Origin: a virus
Direction: 5' to 3' (one strand)
DNA: 64,000 nucleotides
Virus record (IMG/VR): IMGVR_UViG_3300005663_000028
Span: 64,001 to 128,000 of that record
In this document: positions 1,914-28,034 of the stretch, one piece after another
Numbering within the stretch: position 1 is the stretch's first letter
Layout of the letters: every line of letters starts with the position of its first letter
The notes under the pieces: generated by a model
Seen by the model: only the letters and a program-made list of their open reading frames with translations
Databases searched by the model: none
Told to the model about the DNA's origin: nothing
Program-made: the position numbers and the translations under genes

Positions 1914-1985
1914 GCCCGCTAAGCATAGATAGCGATGCGCTGGTTTTGTAAATCAGGGAGGTTGGTGCATGTCCGACAGTGGGCT
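1914..1985 (+). tRNA. tRNA-Thr(UGU)
   Basis: Cloverleaf: acceptor GCCCGCT/AGTGGGC, D stem GCAT/ATGC, anticodon stem CTGGT/ATCAG with loop TT-TGT-AA, T stem GTTGG/CCGAC. No encoded CCA. Confidence 0.85.
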
Positions 1986-2001
1986 TAGTGGAAAAGAGGC
2001 T

Positions 2002-2574
2002 ATGAGAGCCGCAGCTATTCGTGGCAACGAGACACGAAGAGTACGTAATAGAAATAATTATGCAATGAACCTAAAATTTTGTGCTCATTGTGATCGGCAA
2101 TTGGCTTACACCAAACGACACAATCGTTTCTGTAATCACTCGTGTGCCGCTTCTGCGAATAACTTAGGTGTGACACGACACAGTAAGTACATCAAAAGGC
2201 CGTGTGATCTATGTGGAGAAATAACTAGAAACCCAAAATTTTGTTCTACGAGGTGTTGTTGTGACTACATAAAGAAGTTGGCGAAACCGAATATTACAAT
2301 AAATGGGTGTTTTTTGACATCGCTTGCTGCTAAAAGGTATTTATTGAGAATTTATGGCAATACCTGTTCTGTGTGCGGCTTATCAGAGTGGAATAATAAA
2401 CCAATGTCGATATGTATTGATCATATAGATGGGAATTATCAGAACCACAGTATCGCAAATGTTAGGTTGATTTGTCCAAATTGTGACGCGCAAACGGATA
2501 CGTATAAGGGGAGGAATCGAGGCAATGGACGACATGCTCGTATGGAACGATATCACAAGGGGTTGAGTTACTGA
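2002..2574 (+). CDS. HNH endonuclease with N-terminal CxxC zinc-finger repeats (putative homing endonuclease)
   Basis: CSVCG...IDHIDGN..NH...NVRLICPNCDAQT HNH motif. Start moved from 1969 (inside the tRNA) to the ATG at 2002. Confidence 0.85.
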   Translation: MRAAAIRGNETRRVRNRNNYAMNLKFCAHCDRQLAYTKRHNRFCNHSCAASANNLGVTRHSKYIKRPCDLCGEITRNPKFCSTRCCCDYIKKLAKPNITINGCFLTSLAAKRYLLRIYGNTCSVCGLSEWNNKPMSICIDHIDGNYQNHSIANVRLICPNCDAQTDTYKGRNRGNGRHARMERYHKGLSY

Positions 2575-3637: not shown

Positions 3638-3925
3638 TTGTGTCTAGCTAAGGGTCGAGAGACCCCCGAATCCGTAAGGAGGCTTAAAATAGATACGTTA
3701 AAAGTAGAACTGGAATATTTCGAGCAACACCGAAAAGAGTGGTGTAAGCACCATTTAGGTAAAGTTGCTGTAATTAGCGGAACCATCTTGCATGGTTTTT
3801 ACGATACCTGTGAAGCGGCTTTAGAGGTGGGGTATGATAAGTGTGGTGTTGACCAACCCTTTCTCATTAAAGAGGTGCGTATTAAAGATAAAGTAGTACT
3901 TATTACTCGTCTTCTGGGGTTTTAA
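3638..3925 (+). CDS. DUF5678-like small protein (true start possibly ATA at 3689)
   Basis: ELEYFEQHRKEW...GKVAVISG...GFYDT.EAAL..G....G..PFLIKEV pattern; AAGGAGG at 3676-3682. Confidence 0.6.
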   Translation: MCLAKGRETPESVRRLKIDTLKVELEYFEQHRKEWCKHHLGKVAVISGTILHGFYDTCEAALEVGYDKCGVDQPFLIKEVRIKDKVVLITRLLGF

Positions 3926-4495: not shown

Positions 4496-4530
4496 AGTGT
4501 CGTTTTCGGACGACACTAGATTTTTTTATT
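4496..4530 (+). terminator. Rho-independent terminator
   Basis: AGTGTCGT-TTTCGG-ACGACACT 8-bp stem followed by a long T tract. Confidence 0.8.
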
Positions 4531-4554
4531 TTTTTGGGACAAAATGGTGAGTTA

Positions 4555-4564
4555 GGGGTATAAT
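4555..4564 (+). promoter_or_regulatory. Putative -10 element upstream of the tRNA-like gene
   Basis: GGGGTATAAT just after a terminator, ~40 nt upstream of the tRNA-like gene; no clear -35. Confidence 0.4.
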
Positions 4565-4605: not shown

Positions 4606-4677
4606 GGTTTTGGTAGCTCAGTTTGGTAGAGCAACGGGTCGCACCTGTGGTCGTTGGTTCAAATCCAACCCAAACCA
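4606..4677 (+). tRNA. Atypical/degenerate tRNA-like gene (shortened anticodon arm; identity unresolved)
   Basis: Canonical D arm (TAGCTCAGTTTGGTAGAGC) and T arm (GTTGG-TTCAAAT-CCAAC). Anticodon arm ACGGG-TCGCA-CCTGT has only a 5-nt loop; acceptor stem has a bulge. Confidence 0.55.
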
Positions 4678-4755
4678 TTTGTTGTCTGCCAGGGGCAGGG
4701 AATCCATAAAGGCTTGGCCACGGAGCCGTATCTGTGGTGATTTGGGGAATAATCA

Positions 4756-4896
4756 ATGAAAAGTTTGTGTACACAATTAAGTGACAAGGATGCTCAGATA
4801 TTTCTGGAGATGTTGCAGGATGATTCTGAACCCAACGAGGCACTTAAAGCCGCTGCGATACGGTACGTATCGCCATTTGGTGGTGATGCGGGCTAG
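4756..4896 (+). CDS. 46-aa orphan protein resembling the C-terminal part of DUF1778 (TacA/AtaR/KacA) antitoxins (not in ORF track)
   Basis: MKSLCTQLSDKDAQIFLEMLQDDSEPNEALKAAAIRY...; LS..D...F...L....EPNEALK.A..RY is the DUF1778 C-terminal pattern; GGGGA RBS; no RHH domain. Confidence 0.65.
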   Translation: MKSLCTQLSDKDAQIFLEMLQDDSEPNEALKAAAIRYVSPFGGDAG

Positions 4897-4970
4897 GGTT
4901 TATTCTTTTAATTAAGATTGGACTTTGGCTCGTGGGAGACTGCGGATCTTTTTTTGTTAGATATAGGACT

Positions 4971-5609
4971 ATGAAAACAACAACAGTTAATATTCGTCGT
5001 AGTGAATATGATGTATATATCGGCCGTGCTGGGCATGGCCACGATGGTATTTTCGGCAATCCATTCAGTGGTATCCGAGACGGTGGACGCGAGAAAGCAA
5101 TTGCGTTATACCGAAAATACTTTTTGGAACGATTAAAAAATGATCAAGAATTTGTTGCACAGGTAGAAAAATTAAAGGGTAAGCGGCTTGGTTGTTTCTG
5201 TAAACCAAAGGCTTGTCATGGGGATGTGATAGTTGAGTATTTGGAGAAACCAATGAAAGTGGTGATATGTGGAGATCGTAATTGGTCGGATGAATCTATT
5301 ATTTGTGAAAGATTACATAAACTTCCTTCCGATACTATCATTATCCAGGGGGAGTGTGACGGTGCAGATACTTTAGCCGGGGATCTTGCTAGGGAAATAG
5401 GACTTGATGTTGTCGGGTTCTATGCCAATTGGACTAGGCACGGTAAGGCTGCTGGGCCAATCAGAAATATTAGGATGTTGAATACGAAACCGTCTTTGGT
5501 AATTGCATTCCATAATGATTTGAGTAAGTCTAAGGGGACTAAGCACATAGTCAATGAAGCAAGGAAACGAGGAATTGAAGTGGAGGTTATTGAAGATAAT
5601 GTTGAATGA
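4971..5609 (+). CDS. DUF4326 + YspA-like SLOG (DUF2493-type) fusion protein
   Basis: N-domain VYIGR...FGNPF...GKRLGCFCKPKACHGDVI; C-domain KVVICGDRNW...GECDGAD.LA...HGKAAGPIRN..ML...VIAF...SKGT. Start placed at ATG 4971. Confidence 0.85.
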   Translation: MKTTTVNIRRSEYDVYIGRAGHGHDGIFGNPFSGIRDGGREKAIALYRKYFLERLKNDQEFVAQVEKLKGKRLGCFCKPKACHGDVIVEYLEKPMKVVICGDRNWSDESIICERLHKLPSDTIIIQGECDGADTLAGDLAREIGLDVVGFYANWTRHGKAAGPIRNIRMLNTKPSLVIAFHNDLSKSKGTKHIVNEARKRGIEVEVIEDNVE

Positions 5610-5874
5610 AATAATTGATTTTTTGAACGAAGCCGTAAAGCAAGATAGTGAATCTGTCGACAATGTGTTTCGAAAGATAAGTGTTCCCGCTACTCAAGAA
5701 ATGATTGAACACCCAACTATTGTAGTTACAATGGATGGTAAGTTAAGGTTAATTGGATTAATAAATGGTTTTATGGAGGAGGGTGGTAATCGCCTAGCTA
5801 TGACAATTGATGATGAAACGGGTAAGATCACTGGATTCTGCGCCGTAACATCACAAGAACTGGGATTAGGATAG
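5599..5874 (+). CDS. Hypothetical protein
   Basis: ATG 5599 overlaps the end of the upstream gene and is in frame with track ORF 5554..5874. Confidence 0.6.
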   Translation: MLNEIIDFLNEAVKQDSESVDNVFRKISVPATQEMIEHPTIVVTMDGKLRLIGLINGFMEEGGNRLAMTIDDETGKITGFCAVTSQELGLG

Positions 5875-5893
5875 ATCATGGAAAGAAAGGTGG

Positions 5894-6181
5894 TTGAATA
5901 AGATGTTGGAATGTTGTCTACCCAGTGATCAGATGGTTGAGGTATTGTTCAAGGGCGAAAAAGAAAAAGCTAAATTAGCTATTGCCGCAGCTTTTACAGA
6001 GACCGGAACTCACCTGATATTGATTCTCGCAGACGGTAAACAGCGTACTGTACCAATATCTATTTTTACGGACAATCCGGTTGCAGTGCCAAACTTTAAC
6101 ACTTTAGAGCTTTGTGACTATGGACGTACTGTTAAATTTGGCACATATGAAGCGGCAGTAGATTTTGCTTTGAAATACTGA
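5894..6181 (+). CDS. Hypothetical protein, weakly DUF2442-like
   Basis: LILILADGKQRTVPISIF...FNTLELCDYGRTVKFG pattern; the TGA stop lies inside the 5' end of tRNA-Pro. Confidence 0.55.
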   Translation: MNKMLECCLPSDQMVEVLFKGEKEKAKLAIAAAFTETGTHLILILADGKQRTVPISIFTDNPVAVPNFNTLELCDYGRTVKFGTYEAAVDFALKY

Positions 6182-6252
6182 CTGTAGCGTAGTCTGGCCA
6201 ACGCGCCGCGTTTGGGACGCGGAGATCGCAAGTTCGAGTCTTGCCAGTCAGA
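6178..6252 (+). tRNA. tRNA-Pro(UGG)
   Basis: Acceptor CTGACTG/CAGTCAG, anticodon stem CCGCG/CGCGG with loop TT-TGG-GA, T arm GCAAG-TTCGAGT-CTTGC. Confidence 0.92.
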
Positions 6253-6274
6253 ATCTTGAAGGGGAAAGGGGATT

Positions 6275-6439
6275 ATGAGAAAATTAATTCGTAAATTTGT
6301 TTGCTGGCTAATCGGCTGTAACTACATTTGTCTTCATCGTTTTGTGATCGAACGTGATTACAATCTCAGTTCCACTGTAAGTGGATGGCAATGTATCCGG
6401 TGCGACAATCGTAGACACGAACAGTGGGATGATGTGTGA
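6275..6439 (+). CDS. Small Cys/His protein (54 aa; not in ORF track)
   Basis: MRKLIRKFVCWLIGCNY...WQCIRCDNRR...; GGGGA RBS; TGATG coupling to the next gene. Confidence 0.6.
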   Translation: MRKLIRKFVCWLIGCNYICLHRFVIERDYNLSSTVSGWQCIRCDNRRHEQWDDV

Positions 6440-6759
6440 TGAATAAAATACCGAAACTAGGAAAAGACTGTGAACAACACCTGTACTCAGAATACTTTGG
6501 ATGTAGATGTACAAGTAATGAGCACCTTGTGTTGTTCACTCTTGATGCTTATGATCCTCAATATGTTGAGTTTTGCGTATCAGTTAAAATGAATCAATAT
6601 CATGGATTTTTTGCAAAACTCTGGGTTGCAGTGAAATATCTGTTTGGTCGTAAATGTAAGGATGCGGTTGATCATTGGGATACTGTTATGCTGAAAATTG
6701 AAGATGTTGATCGGTTAATTGAAATGCTACAAAAGTATAAAAGGCTATCTGAGGAGTAA
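6439..6759 (+). CDS. Hypothetical protein
   Basis: 106-aa ORF coupled to the upstream stop. Confidence 0.65.
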   Translation: MNKIPKLGKDCEQHLYSEYFGCRCTSNEHLVLFTLDAYDPQYVEFCVSVKMNQYHGFFAKLWVAVKYLFGRKCKDAVDHWDTVMLKIEDVDRLIEMLQKYKRLSEE

Positions 6760-6761
6760 GT

Positions 6762-7229
6762 ATGTCTTTGACGTCAAGCGACATTCATAAAGTAGTTCAT
6801 GAGCTTAGGTATAGCCAGGGTGGTAATGTTGCGGATAATGTGGAGGCATTTGTGATCAATACTGAAGACTTAAGAGATTTGTTAAGGCAAGATCAATTTT
6901 CTAATCAATTTCCCCTTTGGGGTACGGGTTGTGATCCTGGACAGTTGAAGATTTGTGGAATAAAGATTATAGATAGCCCATACATAGAGAAAGGTGTTGT
7001 TTTTAAGATGTTCAAAAATGACCCATTGTACAGAAATTTCACTGATTTCACACTCCCTCCCGAATGGCCGATAAAATATATACCTTCATCATCACCAACT
7101 GGTTCGGATAAGGATGAAATAGAAAAAATGAAATTGAAAATAAAAATCTTGGAGTTAGAAACTGGACCAGTAGTTAAGGAAAAATCTAAGAAGAAGTATA
7201 GCCAGACACGAAAGATTAAATTAGGTTAA
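6762..7229 (+). CDS. Hypothetical protein (N-half weakly resembles an HK97 capsid segment)
   Basis: GGAG RBS; ends one base before tRNA-Ala. Confidence 0.65.
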   Translation: MSLTSSDIHKVVHELRYSQGGNVADNVEAFVINTEDLRDLLRQDQFSNQFPLWGTGCDPGQLKICGIKIIDSPYIEKGVVFKMFKNDPLYRNFTDFTLPPEWPIKYIPSSSPTGSDKDEIEKMKLKIKILELETGPVVKEKSKKKYSQTRKIKLG

Positions 7230-7302
7230 GGGGGAGTAGCTCAGTTGGGAGAGCGTTGCCCTTGCAAGGCAAAGGCCGCCGGATCGTAGCCGGTCTCCTC
7301 CA
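7230..7302 (+). tRNA. tRNA-Ala(UGC)
   Basis: Acceptor GGGGGAG/CTCCTCC with the G3:U70 alanine identity pair; anticodon stem TTGCC/GGCAA with loop CT-TGC-AA; atypical T loop ATCGTAG. Confidence 0.9.
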
Positions 7303-7322
7303 GTTACTCGAAAGGATAGAAA

Positions 7323-7526
7323 ATGTTATCAACAGAAAGAGGTGTTGCACTACAACATTTGTGTGAGCATCGCATTAACGACGCGGATGAATATGGTGCC
7401 GCATTAGAAATGATTGACTTTATAGCGACAGAAGAAAAACTCACCGACGACCAGAAACTGTTTACAGAAACTCTAATATCTATTGTTGATGAGTATGAGG
7501 AAAAACATTATCCTTATGGAAATTAA
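7323..7526 (+). CDS. 67-aa orphan protein resembling the N-terminal domain of HigA antitoxins (no HTH)
   Basis: RINDADEYGAALEMID...FTETLISIVDEYEEKHYP matches the I...EEY..AL......L..L..LVE.YEE.HYP HigA N-terminal pattern; the ORF stops where the HTH would begin. Confidence 0.7.
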   Translation: MLSTERGVALQHLCEHRINDADEYGAALEMIDFIATEEKLTDDQKLFTETLISIVDEYEEKHYPYGN

Positions 7527-7586
7527 ATTGGGTCGATAGCTCAGTAGTGTATAAACATATGCACTTACCACAAAATGGTGATATAA

Positions 7587-7851: not shown

Positions 7852-7875
7852 ATTCATATATGTGAAAACACACAG

Positions 7876-7913
7876 AACCGGATGGTCCGATAGGGCTGTC
7901 CGGTTTTTTATTT
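7876..7913 (+). terminator. Rho-independent terminator / possible attenuator upstream of tRNA-Gln
   Basis: AACCGGATGGTCC-GATA-GGGCTGTCCGGTT stem (with G:U pairs) followed by TTTTATTT. Confidence 0.7.
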
Positions 7914-7930
7914 GGAAAGCTTTCCGTTTT

Positions 7931-8002
7931 GGCCCTGTAGTGTAATGGAAACACAATAGTCTTTGAAACTAGAGATTCCTGGTTCGAGCCCAGGCAGGGC
8001 CG
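7931..8002 (+). tRNA. tRNA-Gln(UUG)
   Basis: Acceptor GGCCCTG/CAGGGCC, anticodon loop CT-TTG-AA, T arm CCTGG-TTCGAGC-CCAGG. Confidence 0.9.
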
Positions 8003-8013
8003 TTTTTCCTCCT

Positions 8014-26188: not shown

Positions 26189-26509
26189 ATGCCCAAAAAA
26201 CATCAAACGTTTTATGCTGCGATATGCTTGGTTTTAAGTGTTGTCAGTGGGATTGCTGGAGCATCTTATTATGTGGGAGCAGGACAACAAAAGATGAATG
26301 ATGCAATAAACACTAATAGCATCAAAGTTGCTACCATTAAAACAGAGATAAATCAAGAACTAGACCGTTTTACCGAATTAATAGTTTTACAAATAACCCA
26401 ACTCCAAAACGCCACAGCACAATTAAACAATTCAGCCACAAGCTTACATACCGAAGTTCAAGTTCTCAAAGTTTTAGTATCTGGCTTAGAAAAAGAACGT
26501 AGTAACTAA
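26189..26509 (+). CDS. Membrane protein with coiled coil (possible holin-like)
   Basis: N-terminal hydrophobic helix FYAAICLVLSVVSGIAGASYYVG, heptad C-terminus, end of the late block. Confidence 0.45.
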   Translation: MPKKHQTFYAAICLVLSVVSGIAGASYYVGAGQQKMNDAINTNSIKVATIKTEINQELDRFTELIVLQITQLQNATAQLNNSATSLHTEVQVLKVLVSGLEKERSN

Positions 26510-26982
26510 TCATTCCATCCATACATAACTTCGATAGCACGACACAAAAGGGTTCGTAATATACAGGCTTCCCCCTCACTTATTGCATGTCTTACTACGG
26601 TTTTCTGGTCATCTCTTTTGACGCTTAGGTGAATACGAAGCATCCTGTTTTTATCGTAACCAAAGTACAGAACAGCATTGCCTTTTGGATTAGAATGGAA
26701 AAGACCTTTATGCTTTTTCGACTCTTGGTCAATTGGTCCAACCCCATCTTTAATACCCATTAGAACAGTGAGAAGCTCACCAAGATCAGATTCCCCCAAC
26801 TTGAATGAAATTTTATTAGGCCAATCGAAATTTGCATTTCCATCTTTATCCTTGCCCTTCTGATTAGCCATTTCAAGAAAAACACAATCCTTTTTGGAAC
26901 CGAGACTCCACTGTGACGCCGCCCCATTACCATCGTTTTTTGCCTTATAGAGTATAAAGCTTTTACTGTATTTATCCGCCAT
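26506..26982 (-). CDS. Whirly-like ssDNA-binding protein
   Basis: NFDWPNKISFKLGESDLGELL resembles the Whirly YDW..K..F.L...E.G.L motif. Confidence 0.55.
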   Translation of the reverse strand: MADKYSKSFILYKAKNDGNGAASQWSLGSKKDCVFLEMANQKGKDKDGNANFDWPNKISFKLGESDLGELLTVLMGIKDGVGPIDQESKKHKGLFHSNPKGNAVLYFGYDKNRMLRIHLSVKRDDQKTVVRHAISEGEACILRTLLCRAIEVMYGWND

Positions 26983-28034
26983 TATTCCTTCTCCTTTGCT
27001 TCTTTCATTTCTCTCATTTTTGTAGATATCGCCAAAGCATCTTCATACGTTAATGATCTAAGATTAATATCTCCATCAGAACTGAGTTCGCATACAATGT
27101 TCAAGTCGCCCACAACCTTGTCTATAGAAAACCCTTGTCGTTCGGCTATCATGCGAATCATTGTAATTTGAGCCCCGTGGATGGCACCTCCAGGTTGAAC
27201 ATCAGCAGTAGCAGCAACAGTTTTACTGACTTCTTCTGCCGCAACAACACGTTTTAGACCCAAGGCGTTGCGATACACCCTACCCTTAGCCCTAGTATCT
27301 GCCATGGCAACCAAGTAAGTAGCGTAATCCTCGAAACAATTGGCGGCATTTGCATCAGCTAAAGCCTCAAACCTTTTTTCATAACCATTCTCGGTAAGGA
27401 ATACTACCCAAGCCTTTGCGCATGCCCTAAAATTGTTTTCTTCTGAAGGGGCTGCTATTAAATCGCATCCTTCCTCCATTATGACACCAACTAGTTCTCC
27501 AGCTATACGCCTCAACCCTTCTACCCTAGGATTCCCCTTATCCATTTCATCGTCATCAAATTTGCCCAAAACATATTGGGTCCATCTAGGATCACTGGGT
27601 GTGGGCGGAGCCGAATTGTATGTGTCAGCGGCGTCCTGTAGGGCTTCGTTCGGCTCCACGTCTTTGGTAACCACTTCTTTGAAAATATCTCGATCTCGAT
27701 TGGAAAGCTTCGTTTCTGGAACCTCATTTTTTACAACAACGTCCTGTATTGTCCCAACTACAGTCTCACTTTTTGTGTCTTGCTGAACAACAGCCTTAGC
27801 CTCAACCTTAATTCCCACATCATCGTCATCATCTTCTTCAACAACAACCTTCGTCAATTCTGAAAGTCCCTGTTCTCCACTTTGATGGGCCTTGAGTTTT
27901 GCGAGCAATTCCGGCCTCTTGAGCTTCTTCCCTTCGTCGTCAAGCAAATCCTTTTCACTATAACCACAAGAAAGCAACTTGACGGCTAATTGATTTTTAC
28001 TCATTTTTGTGGGCGATACTGTTTCGTCACTCAT
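26982..28034 (-). CDS. Putative Rad52/Sak-like single-strand annealing protein with acidic N-terminal extension
   Basis: PRVEGLRRIA...F.ALADA...VAMADTRAKGRVYRNALG core. Confidence 0.5.
   Translation of the reverse strand: MSDETVSPTKMSKNQLAVKLLSCGYSEKDLLDDEGKKLKRPELLAKLKAHQSGEQGLSELTKVVVEEDDDDDVGIKVEAKAVVQQDTKSETVVGTIQDVVVKNEVPETKLSNRDRDIFKEVVTKDVEPNEALQDAADTYNSAPPTPSDPRWTQYVLGKFDDDEMDKGNPRVEGLRRIAGELVGVIMEEGCDLIAAPSEENNFRACAKAWVVFLTENGYEKRFEALADANAANCFEDYATYLVAMADTRAKGRVYRNALGLKRVVAAEEVSKTVAATADVQPGGAIHGAQITMIRMIAERQGFSIDKVVGDLNIVCELSSDGDINLRSLTYEDALAISTKMREMKEAKEKE

Follow-up and report, generated by a model that had tools for sequence, protein, structure and literature searches.

Orphan antitoxins and antitoxin mimics encoded by phages are established and include DarG-like enzymes, Gp145, TifA and mimics of toxI (PMC11825919, PMC13728456). 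Orphan antitoxins of type II are difficult to spot because their neutralising segments are short and have no distinctive fold (PMC11825919). The segments in question have been located in a few antitoxins: the C-terminal β-B/α-C/linker/α-D region of KacA wraps the KacT toxin (PMC6698736), the toxin-interaction domain of the E. coli HigA is reported to be the N-terminal one (PMC7160566), and a 20-residue N-terminal peptide of VcHigA2 suffices to inhibit HigB2 (PMC5416850). In addition, HigBAC is an antiphage system (bioRxiv 10.1101/2024.02.24.581848), and a DUF1778-like protein has been annotated in T4-like Klebsiella phages without follow-up (PMC10100988). This article describes a stretch of 64,000 nucleotides of phage DNA, called the window hereafter (bases 64001-128000 of the 179,553-bp IMG/VR virus record IMGVR_UViG_3300005663_000028, rated complete by CheckV), in which two tiny open reading frames (ORFs), ORF1 and ORF3, are well supported by sequence comparison as homologues of the neutralisation domains of two unrelated type II antitoxins, TacA and HigA, respectively.

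A first-pass annotation of the window had pointed to three tiny ORFs beside tRNA genes and had read them as a panel of minimal toxin-sequestering peptides kept next to replacement tRNAs. The positions of the ORFs and of the tRNA genes proved right (ARAGORN, Rfam and the ORF listing). Of the proposed panel, ORF1 and ORF3 hold as the neutralising portions of antitoxins, while ORF2 drops out on present evidence; a DUF2442-like ORF2, and with it a panel of three, is not supported. Judged from sequence and modelling, the chance that ORF1 and ORF3 are stand-alone toxin-neutralising domains acting as orphan antitoxins, with no DNA-binding domain and no toxin in the phage, is about even.

Homologues of two antitoxin neutralisation domains

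ORF1 matches the Pfam family PF08681 (TacA1/DUF1778) with an E-value of 1.1e-4 and 22.5 bits, the gathering cut-off being 21, and the match covers only positions 48-78 of the 80 positions of the profile. The best matches in the PDB are of TacA type, namely a 36-residue peptide (7ak9_C) and residues 59-87 of a DUF1778 protein (7zg5_C). A scan of prokaryotes, with one genome per species, gave one close relative, a full-length TacA of 97 aa from an Acidobacteria metagenome-assembled genome (L014, MWZA01000073.1). This protein matches the whole PF08681 profile (E 9e-19), and its gene overlaps the gene of a 163-aa GNAT acetyltransferase by 4 nt and is adjoined by a DNA methylase gene. Residues 8-37 of ORF1 are 67% identical to residues 61-90 of this bona fide TacA (30 residues, E 1e-12), and the assignment of ORF1 to the TacA/DUF1778 C-terminus is upheld by this identity and by the Pfam match above the cut-off. 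ORF1 begins 7 residues before the aligned C-terminal segment and, because this start falls just before the toxin-wrapping segment, it has no ribbon-helix-helix (RHH) domain at all. The RHH part was also absent when the phage was searched by tblastn with the full-length Acidobacteria TacA, and there is no RHH remnant upstream of ORF1. As for the Acidobacteria contig itself (L014 1-3346), the tacA-GNAT pair lies between the N6/N4 DNA methylase gene and a long ORF that may be read as a putative helicase/nuclease-like gene, a setting which resembles a defence island. An assignment of the phage host through this match was considered and dropped, a single similarity of 30 residues being too weak.

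The metagenomic contig L002 holds a relative of ORF1 with the same length of 46 aa and 82% identity. Of the codon changes between the two genes, 8 are synonymous and 9 mostly conservative, with residues 24-43 left invariant, and this pattern fits purifying selection on ORF1. Longer relatives were not found in a word-indexed search, and tblastn of TacA against 50,697 phage records gave one unrelated full-length TacA fragment only. A confident toxin interface, which the first-pass annotation had proposed to look for, was modelled for ORF1 with the natural GNAT of the Acidobacteria pair: the co-fold gave an interface score (ipSAE) of 0.79 in three runs and the best of 3 controls gave 0.00, on a scale where the mark is attained by 58 out of 80 complexes with a solved structure and by 2 of 110 mismatched pairs. 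Contacts agreed between the runs by at least 87%, the partner had a predicted local distance difference test score (pLDDT) of at least 76, and residues 3-38 of ORF1 touch residues 63-70, 97-108, 120-123 and 137-163 of the GNAT in the model.

The TacA C-terminus has a second likeness in the same phage, the motif LSNRDRDIF...EPNEAL...Y, which occupies residues 110-139 of a conserved phage protein (350 aa) without a Pfam or PHROG family. By tblastn the motif is 53% identical to the Acidobacteria TacA over the same 30 residues that match ORF1 (E ~1e-5), and Pfam TacA1 aligns with the isolated segment in the same register, although below threshold (E 0.11). The motif lies inside an insertion of ~45 aa in the acidic linker of the protein, and the insertion is missing in all five aligned homologues from related phages (L015-L019). 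ORF1 and the second motif have 53% of residues in common with a third-codon-position identity of 17%, which is the chance level, and on this ground the two motifs were judged not to stem from a recent duplication. Our reading of the second motif is that it may be an independent second deployment of the same toxin-binding module, and its grafting into the linker suggests repeated selection for GNAT-toxin binding. An ORF of 158 aa adjoins this gene and has a weak match to Whirly, a family of single-stranded-DNA-binding proteins, just under the Pfam cut-off.

ORF3 was compared by exhaustive phmmer with 1.84 billion cluster representatives. Significant were 10 of them, its own cluster included, all of 54-77 aa and aligned end to end; across at least 10 clusters identity is 34-48% and the C-terminal motif YEEKHYPYGN is shared. 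The family profile ranked the E. coli HigA N-terminal helix first in the PDB, though at an E-value of 0.2. When this profile was run against the six frames of the E. coli K-12 chromosome, the sole match was inside higA. By hhalign, the family gave 74.6% probability against E. coli HigA alone, and 97.1% (E 6.6e-11, 55 columns) against an alignment of four HigAs, namely that of E. coli K-12 and three Acidobacteria homologues; residues 11-66 of ORF3 align with HigA positions 16-70 of 138. The three Acidobacteria higA genes are directly downstream of PF09907 HigB genes, as the E. coli K-12 higA is beside higB, and the Acidobacteria proteins have the same motif (e.g., LIEAYEEKH, LIEDFEEKHY) just ahead of the linker to the helix-turn-helix (HTH) domain. 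In ORF3 the protein ends at YEEKHYPYGN, which is where the linker to the HTH would start. Moreover, three HigA references each place the N-domain on ORF3 by tblastn, and tblastn with the four HigAs found no HTH part anywhere in the phage. The profile-profile match thus confirms ORF3 as a HigA N-terminus. None of the family members is fused to an HTH. The only longer relative, P0013 (150 aa, on a 913-bp Logan contig), has a Cys-rich zinc-ribbon-like segment fused downstream and no HTH; it diverges just before the YEEKHYP motif and so is probably a frameshift or read-through artefact. No relatives of ORF3 were found by tblastn in the 50,697 phage records.

As had been noticed at first pass, ORF1 and ORF3 have neither a DNA-binding domain nor an adjacent toxin gene, and the absence of toxins now extends to the complete genome. 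Profiles for GNAT (PF13508, PF00583, PF13673), HigB (PF05015, PF09907) and DUF4160 (PF13711) are unmatched in the whole 179.5-kb genome, tblastn of real GNAT and HigB proteins against the phage gave nothing, and no PF09907 HigB gene is found at the loci of the ORF3 homologues in relatives. A cognate toxin elsewhere in the phage, which had been named as an argument against the proposal, was therefore not found with these profiles and searches. Each of the two ORFs is, in short, an antitoxin homologue in a phage without its toxin. Two sister phages, 96-97% complete and of similar genome architecture, are without both modules; ORF1 and ORF3 modules are variable accessory genes, and their absence from sister phages is what is expected for accessory counter-defence genes.

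Proposed toxin neutralisation and possible co-option

If ORF1 and ORF3 act as orphan antitoxins, the course of events might be as follows. Host antitoxins are labile and would decay, and the host toxins would be freed. ORF1, once expressed in infection, would bind host GNAT toxins that acetylate aminoacyl-tRNA, and ORF3, once expressed, would bind host HigB ribosome-dependent mRNases. With the toxins bound by the peptides, translation would be kept running, which would be counter-defence by orphan antitoxins.

Several points weigh against this role. An antitoxin of type II usually acts on its own toxin with high specificity (PMC11825919), so neutralisation would depend on the host having a closely matching toxin. 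No report of GNAT/RHH TA pairs as phage defence was found in the literature, and PADLOC has neither a hit for any of the three ORFs nor a model that matches the Acidobacteria TacA-GNAT pair. Because similar complexes (TacAT, KacAT and AtaRT) have already been solved, the co-fold may reflect the model's memory of them, and it is to be taken as a sign that ORF1 fits a known binding mode, not as proof of binding. Matches of the single ORF3 sequence to HigA are weak; with it, phmmer against the PDB gave nothing relevant and NCBIfam nothing. The ORF3 model is a three-helix bundle (pLDDT 86.8) for which the top Foldseek match is the HigA 6kml_B (TMq 0.63, E 0.94), but VIA-align gives Z 5.0-5.5 for HigA versus 7.2 for GAT domains, which are generic three-helix bundles; the fold being generic, it was not used as evidence of membership. 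Finally, the HigA/SehB N-terminal region has also been reported to carry antitoxin homodimerisation besides toxin interaction (PMC7160566), which allows other targets for ORF3.

The last point leads to the alternative that survives best, although we consider it unlikely, namely that the modules have been co-opted. ORF1 and the grafted motif would then bind a non-toxin host GNAT, and ORF3 would pair with a host HigA-type repressor via the N-domain, so that host physiology or transcription is modulated without toxin sequestration. Apart from the homodimerisation, this explanation draws on the very large size of the GNAT fold family and on the occurrence of the TacA motif in a 350-aa HeH-type protein encoded next to a Whirly-like gene, where an anti-toxin would not obviously be expected. 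It is countered by the nearest relative of ORF1, a neutralising segment from a canonical TacA whose partner is a toxin-type GNAT, and by the specificity of the co-fold; furthermore, binding of a host antitoxin would presumably tend to free the toxin and harm the phage. Toxin neutralisation by ORF1 and ORF3 is accordingly the explanation that we prefer.

The tRNA and small-ORF region

Several assemblies of this uncultivated phage come from marine-sediment metagenomes (PRJNA259156); megablast with the region gave no match, and thus no close relative, among GenBank phages. The genome has 8 tRNA genes, 4 in the region under study and 4 near 167-177 kb. The 4 tRNAs of the region do not form a tandem array but are spread across 3.4 kb with ~10 small ORFs between them (Table 1). 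ORF1, ORF2 and ORF3 are all called as genes in independent assemblies of the phage, ORF2 from its ATG, which the spacing of the ribosome-binding site also fits better, and Shine-Dalgarno-like sequences are well spaced before ORF1 and ORF3. From position ~4570 to ~7907, where a terminator-like hairpin with a 15-bp stem may end it, the tRNAs and small ORFs are a possible single transcription unit, a candidate drawn from consensus matches only; promoter-like sites are no more numerous in the region than in shuffled sequence. A search of the PDB with a 95-aa ORF near the cluster (3638-3925) gave nothing relevant.

Table 1. Positions of the genes, motifs and signals discussed, numbered from the first base of the window.
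Feature	Position	Strand	Description or basis	Location
HNH homing-endonuclease-like gene	1969-2574	+	PHROG matches down to E 3e-22	few kb upstream of tRNA region
Terminator-like hairpin	4496-4517	+	consensus scan	upstream of tRNA-Ala(cgc)
Best promoter-like site of region	4536-4564	+	consensus scan only	just before tRNA-Ala(cgc)
tRNA-Ala(cgc)	4607-4677	+	ARAGORN; Rfam RF00005, 46.2 bits	78 nt upstream of ORF1
ORF1, 46 aa	4756-4896	+	stand-alone TacA/DUF1778 C-terminal homologue (helix, SEPN linker, helix)	
225-aa fusion ORF	4932-5609	+	DUF4326 (E 5.7e-23) + YAcAr/SLOG (E 3.4e-14)	directly 3' of ORF1
ORF2, 92 aa	5903-6181	+	ATG start 5903; 95 aa if TTG start 5894	
tRNA-Pro(tgg)	6178-6252	+	ARAGORN, Rfam	first bases overlap ORF2 stop codon
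tRNA-Ala(tgc)	7230-7302	+	ARAGORN, Rfam	20 nt upstream of ORF3
ORF3, 67 aa	7323-7526	+	stand-alone homologue of E. coli-type HigA N-terminal domain	
Apparent tRNA remnant	7530-7552	+	acceptor stem and D-arm only, from sequence	directly 3' of ORF3 stop
Terminator-like hairpin, 15-bp stem	7874-7907	+	consensus scan	
tRNA-Gln(ttg)	7930-8003	+	ARAGORN, Rfam	last of tRNA group, beyond strong terminator-like hairpin
158-aa ORF	26506-26982	-	weak Whirly match (E 2.7e-4)	adjoins 350-aa ORF
350-aa ORF	26982-28034	-	HeH-like N-terminus, acidic linker, conserved ~200-aa C-terminal domain	
TacA C-terminal-like motif	27618-27707	-	residues 110-139 of 350-aa protein	within 350-aa ORF

The YAcAr domain of the fusion ORF is found as a stand-alone protein (109-115 aa) in relatives. 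HNH genes also break up the tRNA clusters of one relative (L010).

ORF2 had been likened, weakly, to the DUF2442 fold, and the profile, genome and hhalign tests were all negative. It has no match in Pfam (E<=1), NCBIfam, PHROG or PADLOC, and PF10387 (DUF2442) has no match in the whole phage genome at E<=10. Against a profile of 20 real DUF2442 domains ORF2 scored 3.6 bits, a value exceeded by 1 of 500 shuffles, and hhalign with DUF2442 gave 2-3% probability over 16-18 columns, a single strand-turn. The DUF2442 antitoxin was rejected as a candidate on these results. No homologues of ORF2 are present in viral contigs and there was no usable match in Atlas; the AlphaFold model from the single sequence, with a pLDDT of 46.9, did not suffice for a fold search. 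Loss of a DNA-binding domain is in any case inapplicable to ORF2, because DUF2442 proteins consist of one domain only.

ORF3 homologues are flanked by tRNA genes, within ~20 nt, in every relative with enough context (L008, L009, L010/L012 and L013), the adjacent tRNA being Ala or Leu. Because these contigs are one syntenic clade, the adjacency is inherited and is not independent evidence. The sequence directly 3' of ORF3 begins tRNA-like and then degenerates, and neither ARAGORN nor Rfam makes a call there; it looks like a tRNA remnant because the relatives hold an intact tRNA-Leu at this position. The relative of ORF1 follows a DUF1353 gene on a contig (L002) without tRNA. It had been proposed to check whether homologues are free of RHH or HTH domains and linked to tRNAs: the loss of the domain is found for both families, and the linkage to tRNAs for ORF3 but not for ORF1. 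RNA ligase genes occur in or near the tRNA cluster across the clade (L008 4396-5496; L010 5220-6302, of PF09511), and in this phage an RNA ligase of PF09414 is a few kb upstream, just before the start of the window (L003 70-1038). RNA ligases near tRNA clusters recall the tRNA-repair functions of T4-like phages.

A single coordinated anti-defence system made up of the tRNAs and the antitoxin-like peptides, replacement tRNAs together with three toxin sponges, is improbable. This reading is in line with the constant neighbourhood of ORF3 and tRNAs, with the RNA ligases, with the possible single transcription unit and with the finding that phage tRNAs counter tRNA-targeting defences (PMC13728456). 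The neighbourhood, however, goes back to shared ancestry and the tRNA identity by ORF3 varies, the count of promoter-like sites is no better than in shuffles, ORF2 gave no antitoxin-like signal and no tRNA lies next to the ORF1 relative. An added supply of Ala, Pro or Gln tRNAs, moreover, would offer no obvious bypass of the acetylation of charged tRNA or of ribosome-dependent mRNA cleavage. The functional coupling of replacement tRNAs to the peptides claimed at first pass is thus unsupported, given the tRNA-free ORF1 relative and the sister phages without both modules. Most likely, the small ORFs among the tRNAs mark a hypervariable accessory region, where relatives have an RNA ligase as well, and not a mechanistic coupling; we take the region for a rapidly evolving accessory island whose theme is related to translation.

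It is hardly probable either that captured TA loci are in decay here and have left the ORFs as remnants, or that the small ORFs are neutral and have no current function: the very small size of the ORFs, the lack of any relatives of ORF2, the tRNA remnant as a sign of ongoing gene decay and the absence of the modules from the sister phages would suit such a reading, but silent changes in ORF1 have come with an unaltered length and a core of 20 invariant residues, the ORF3 family has kept its length and end motif at its low identity over many clusters, neither gene is flanked by what is left of an RHH or HTH domain, a plausible ribosome-binding site precedes each of them, and the two TacA motifs share more than half of their residues with third codon positions at chance.

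Significance and comparison with known systems

A broader proposal is that this phage lineage uses minimal type II neutralisation domains as modular anti-TA parts, that is, a 46-aa TacA C-terminus, a 67-aa HigA N-domain and a grafted TacA module. This is tentative and somewhat doubtful; the grafted copy hints that neutralisation motifs are movable as modules into other phage proteins. GNAT/RHH TA pairs have been linked so far mainly to persistence. If the proposal is true, they act as antiphage defences in the host, and the phage genes suggest that GNAT tRNA-acetylating TA modules may serve in phage defence. Type II orphan antitoxins would, in addition, be a widespread and overlooked class of counter-defence, which can be found by a simple search rule: a partial match to an antitoxin profile, without the DNA-binding half and without a toxin gene. 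In the present phage two short type II segments are recognisable by sequence, the domain boundaries are clean, the nearest relative of ORF1 belongs to a natural bacterial TA pair, and the toxin/peptide pairs are directly testable. No report of truncated type II antitoxin homologues as phage orphan antitoxins was found in the literature.

In comparison with the antitoxins TacA, AtaR and KacA (PF08681), ORF1 aligns with the toxin-wrapping C-terminal helix, PxPN-type linker and helix, and takes the same modelled pose on a natural GNAT. It differs from them in having no RHH domain for DNA binding and dimerisation and no adjacent toxin, in its length of 46 versus ~90-97 aa, and in being phage-encoded. 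Also unlike these systems, an unrelated protein of the phage bears a grafted second copy of the motif. For the ORF3 family, the counterpart is the helical N-terminal domain of the E. coli-type HigA (5ifg, 6kml), and the homology takes in the end motif (A/D)(Y/W/F)EEKH, but ORF3 has no C-terminal XRE-type HTH and no higB, is 67 aa long versus 123-138 aa, and belongs to a family confined to one phage clade. The N-terminal peptide of VcHigA2 is a precedent for a short antitoxin segment that alone inhibits a HigB-type toxin (PMC5416850); that segment, however, is intrinsically disordered and comes from a different HigA lineage, whereas the prediction for ORF3 is a folded bundle of three helices.

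Counter-defence of phages against TA systems is already known in the form of a type IV enzyme (DarG-like AdfN), type III RNA mimics and several other inhibitors. With AdfN, ICP1 Gp145, T4 Dmd, TifA and pseudo-ToxI, ORF1 and ORF3 would share the concept of a phage antitoxin-like factor directed, without a toxin of its own, against a host TA system. AdfN, a DarG-like NADAR protein, has likewise lost the N-terminal domain relative to DarG (PMC13728456). The known cases are type IV enzymes, type III RNA or inhibitors described without homology to the cognate antitoxin, whereas the candidates described here are truncated homologues of type II protein antitoxins.

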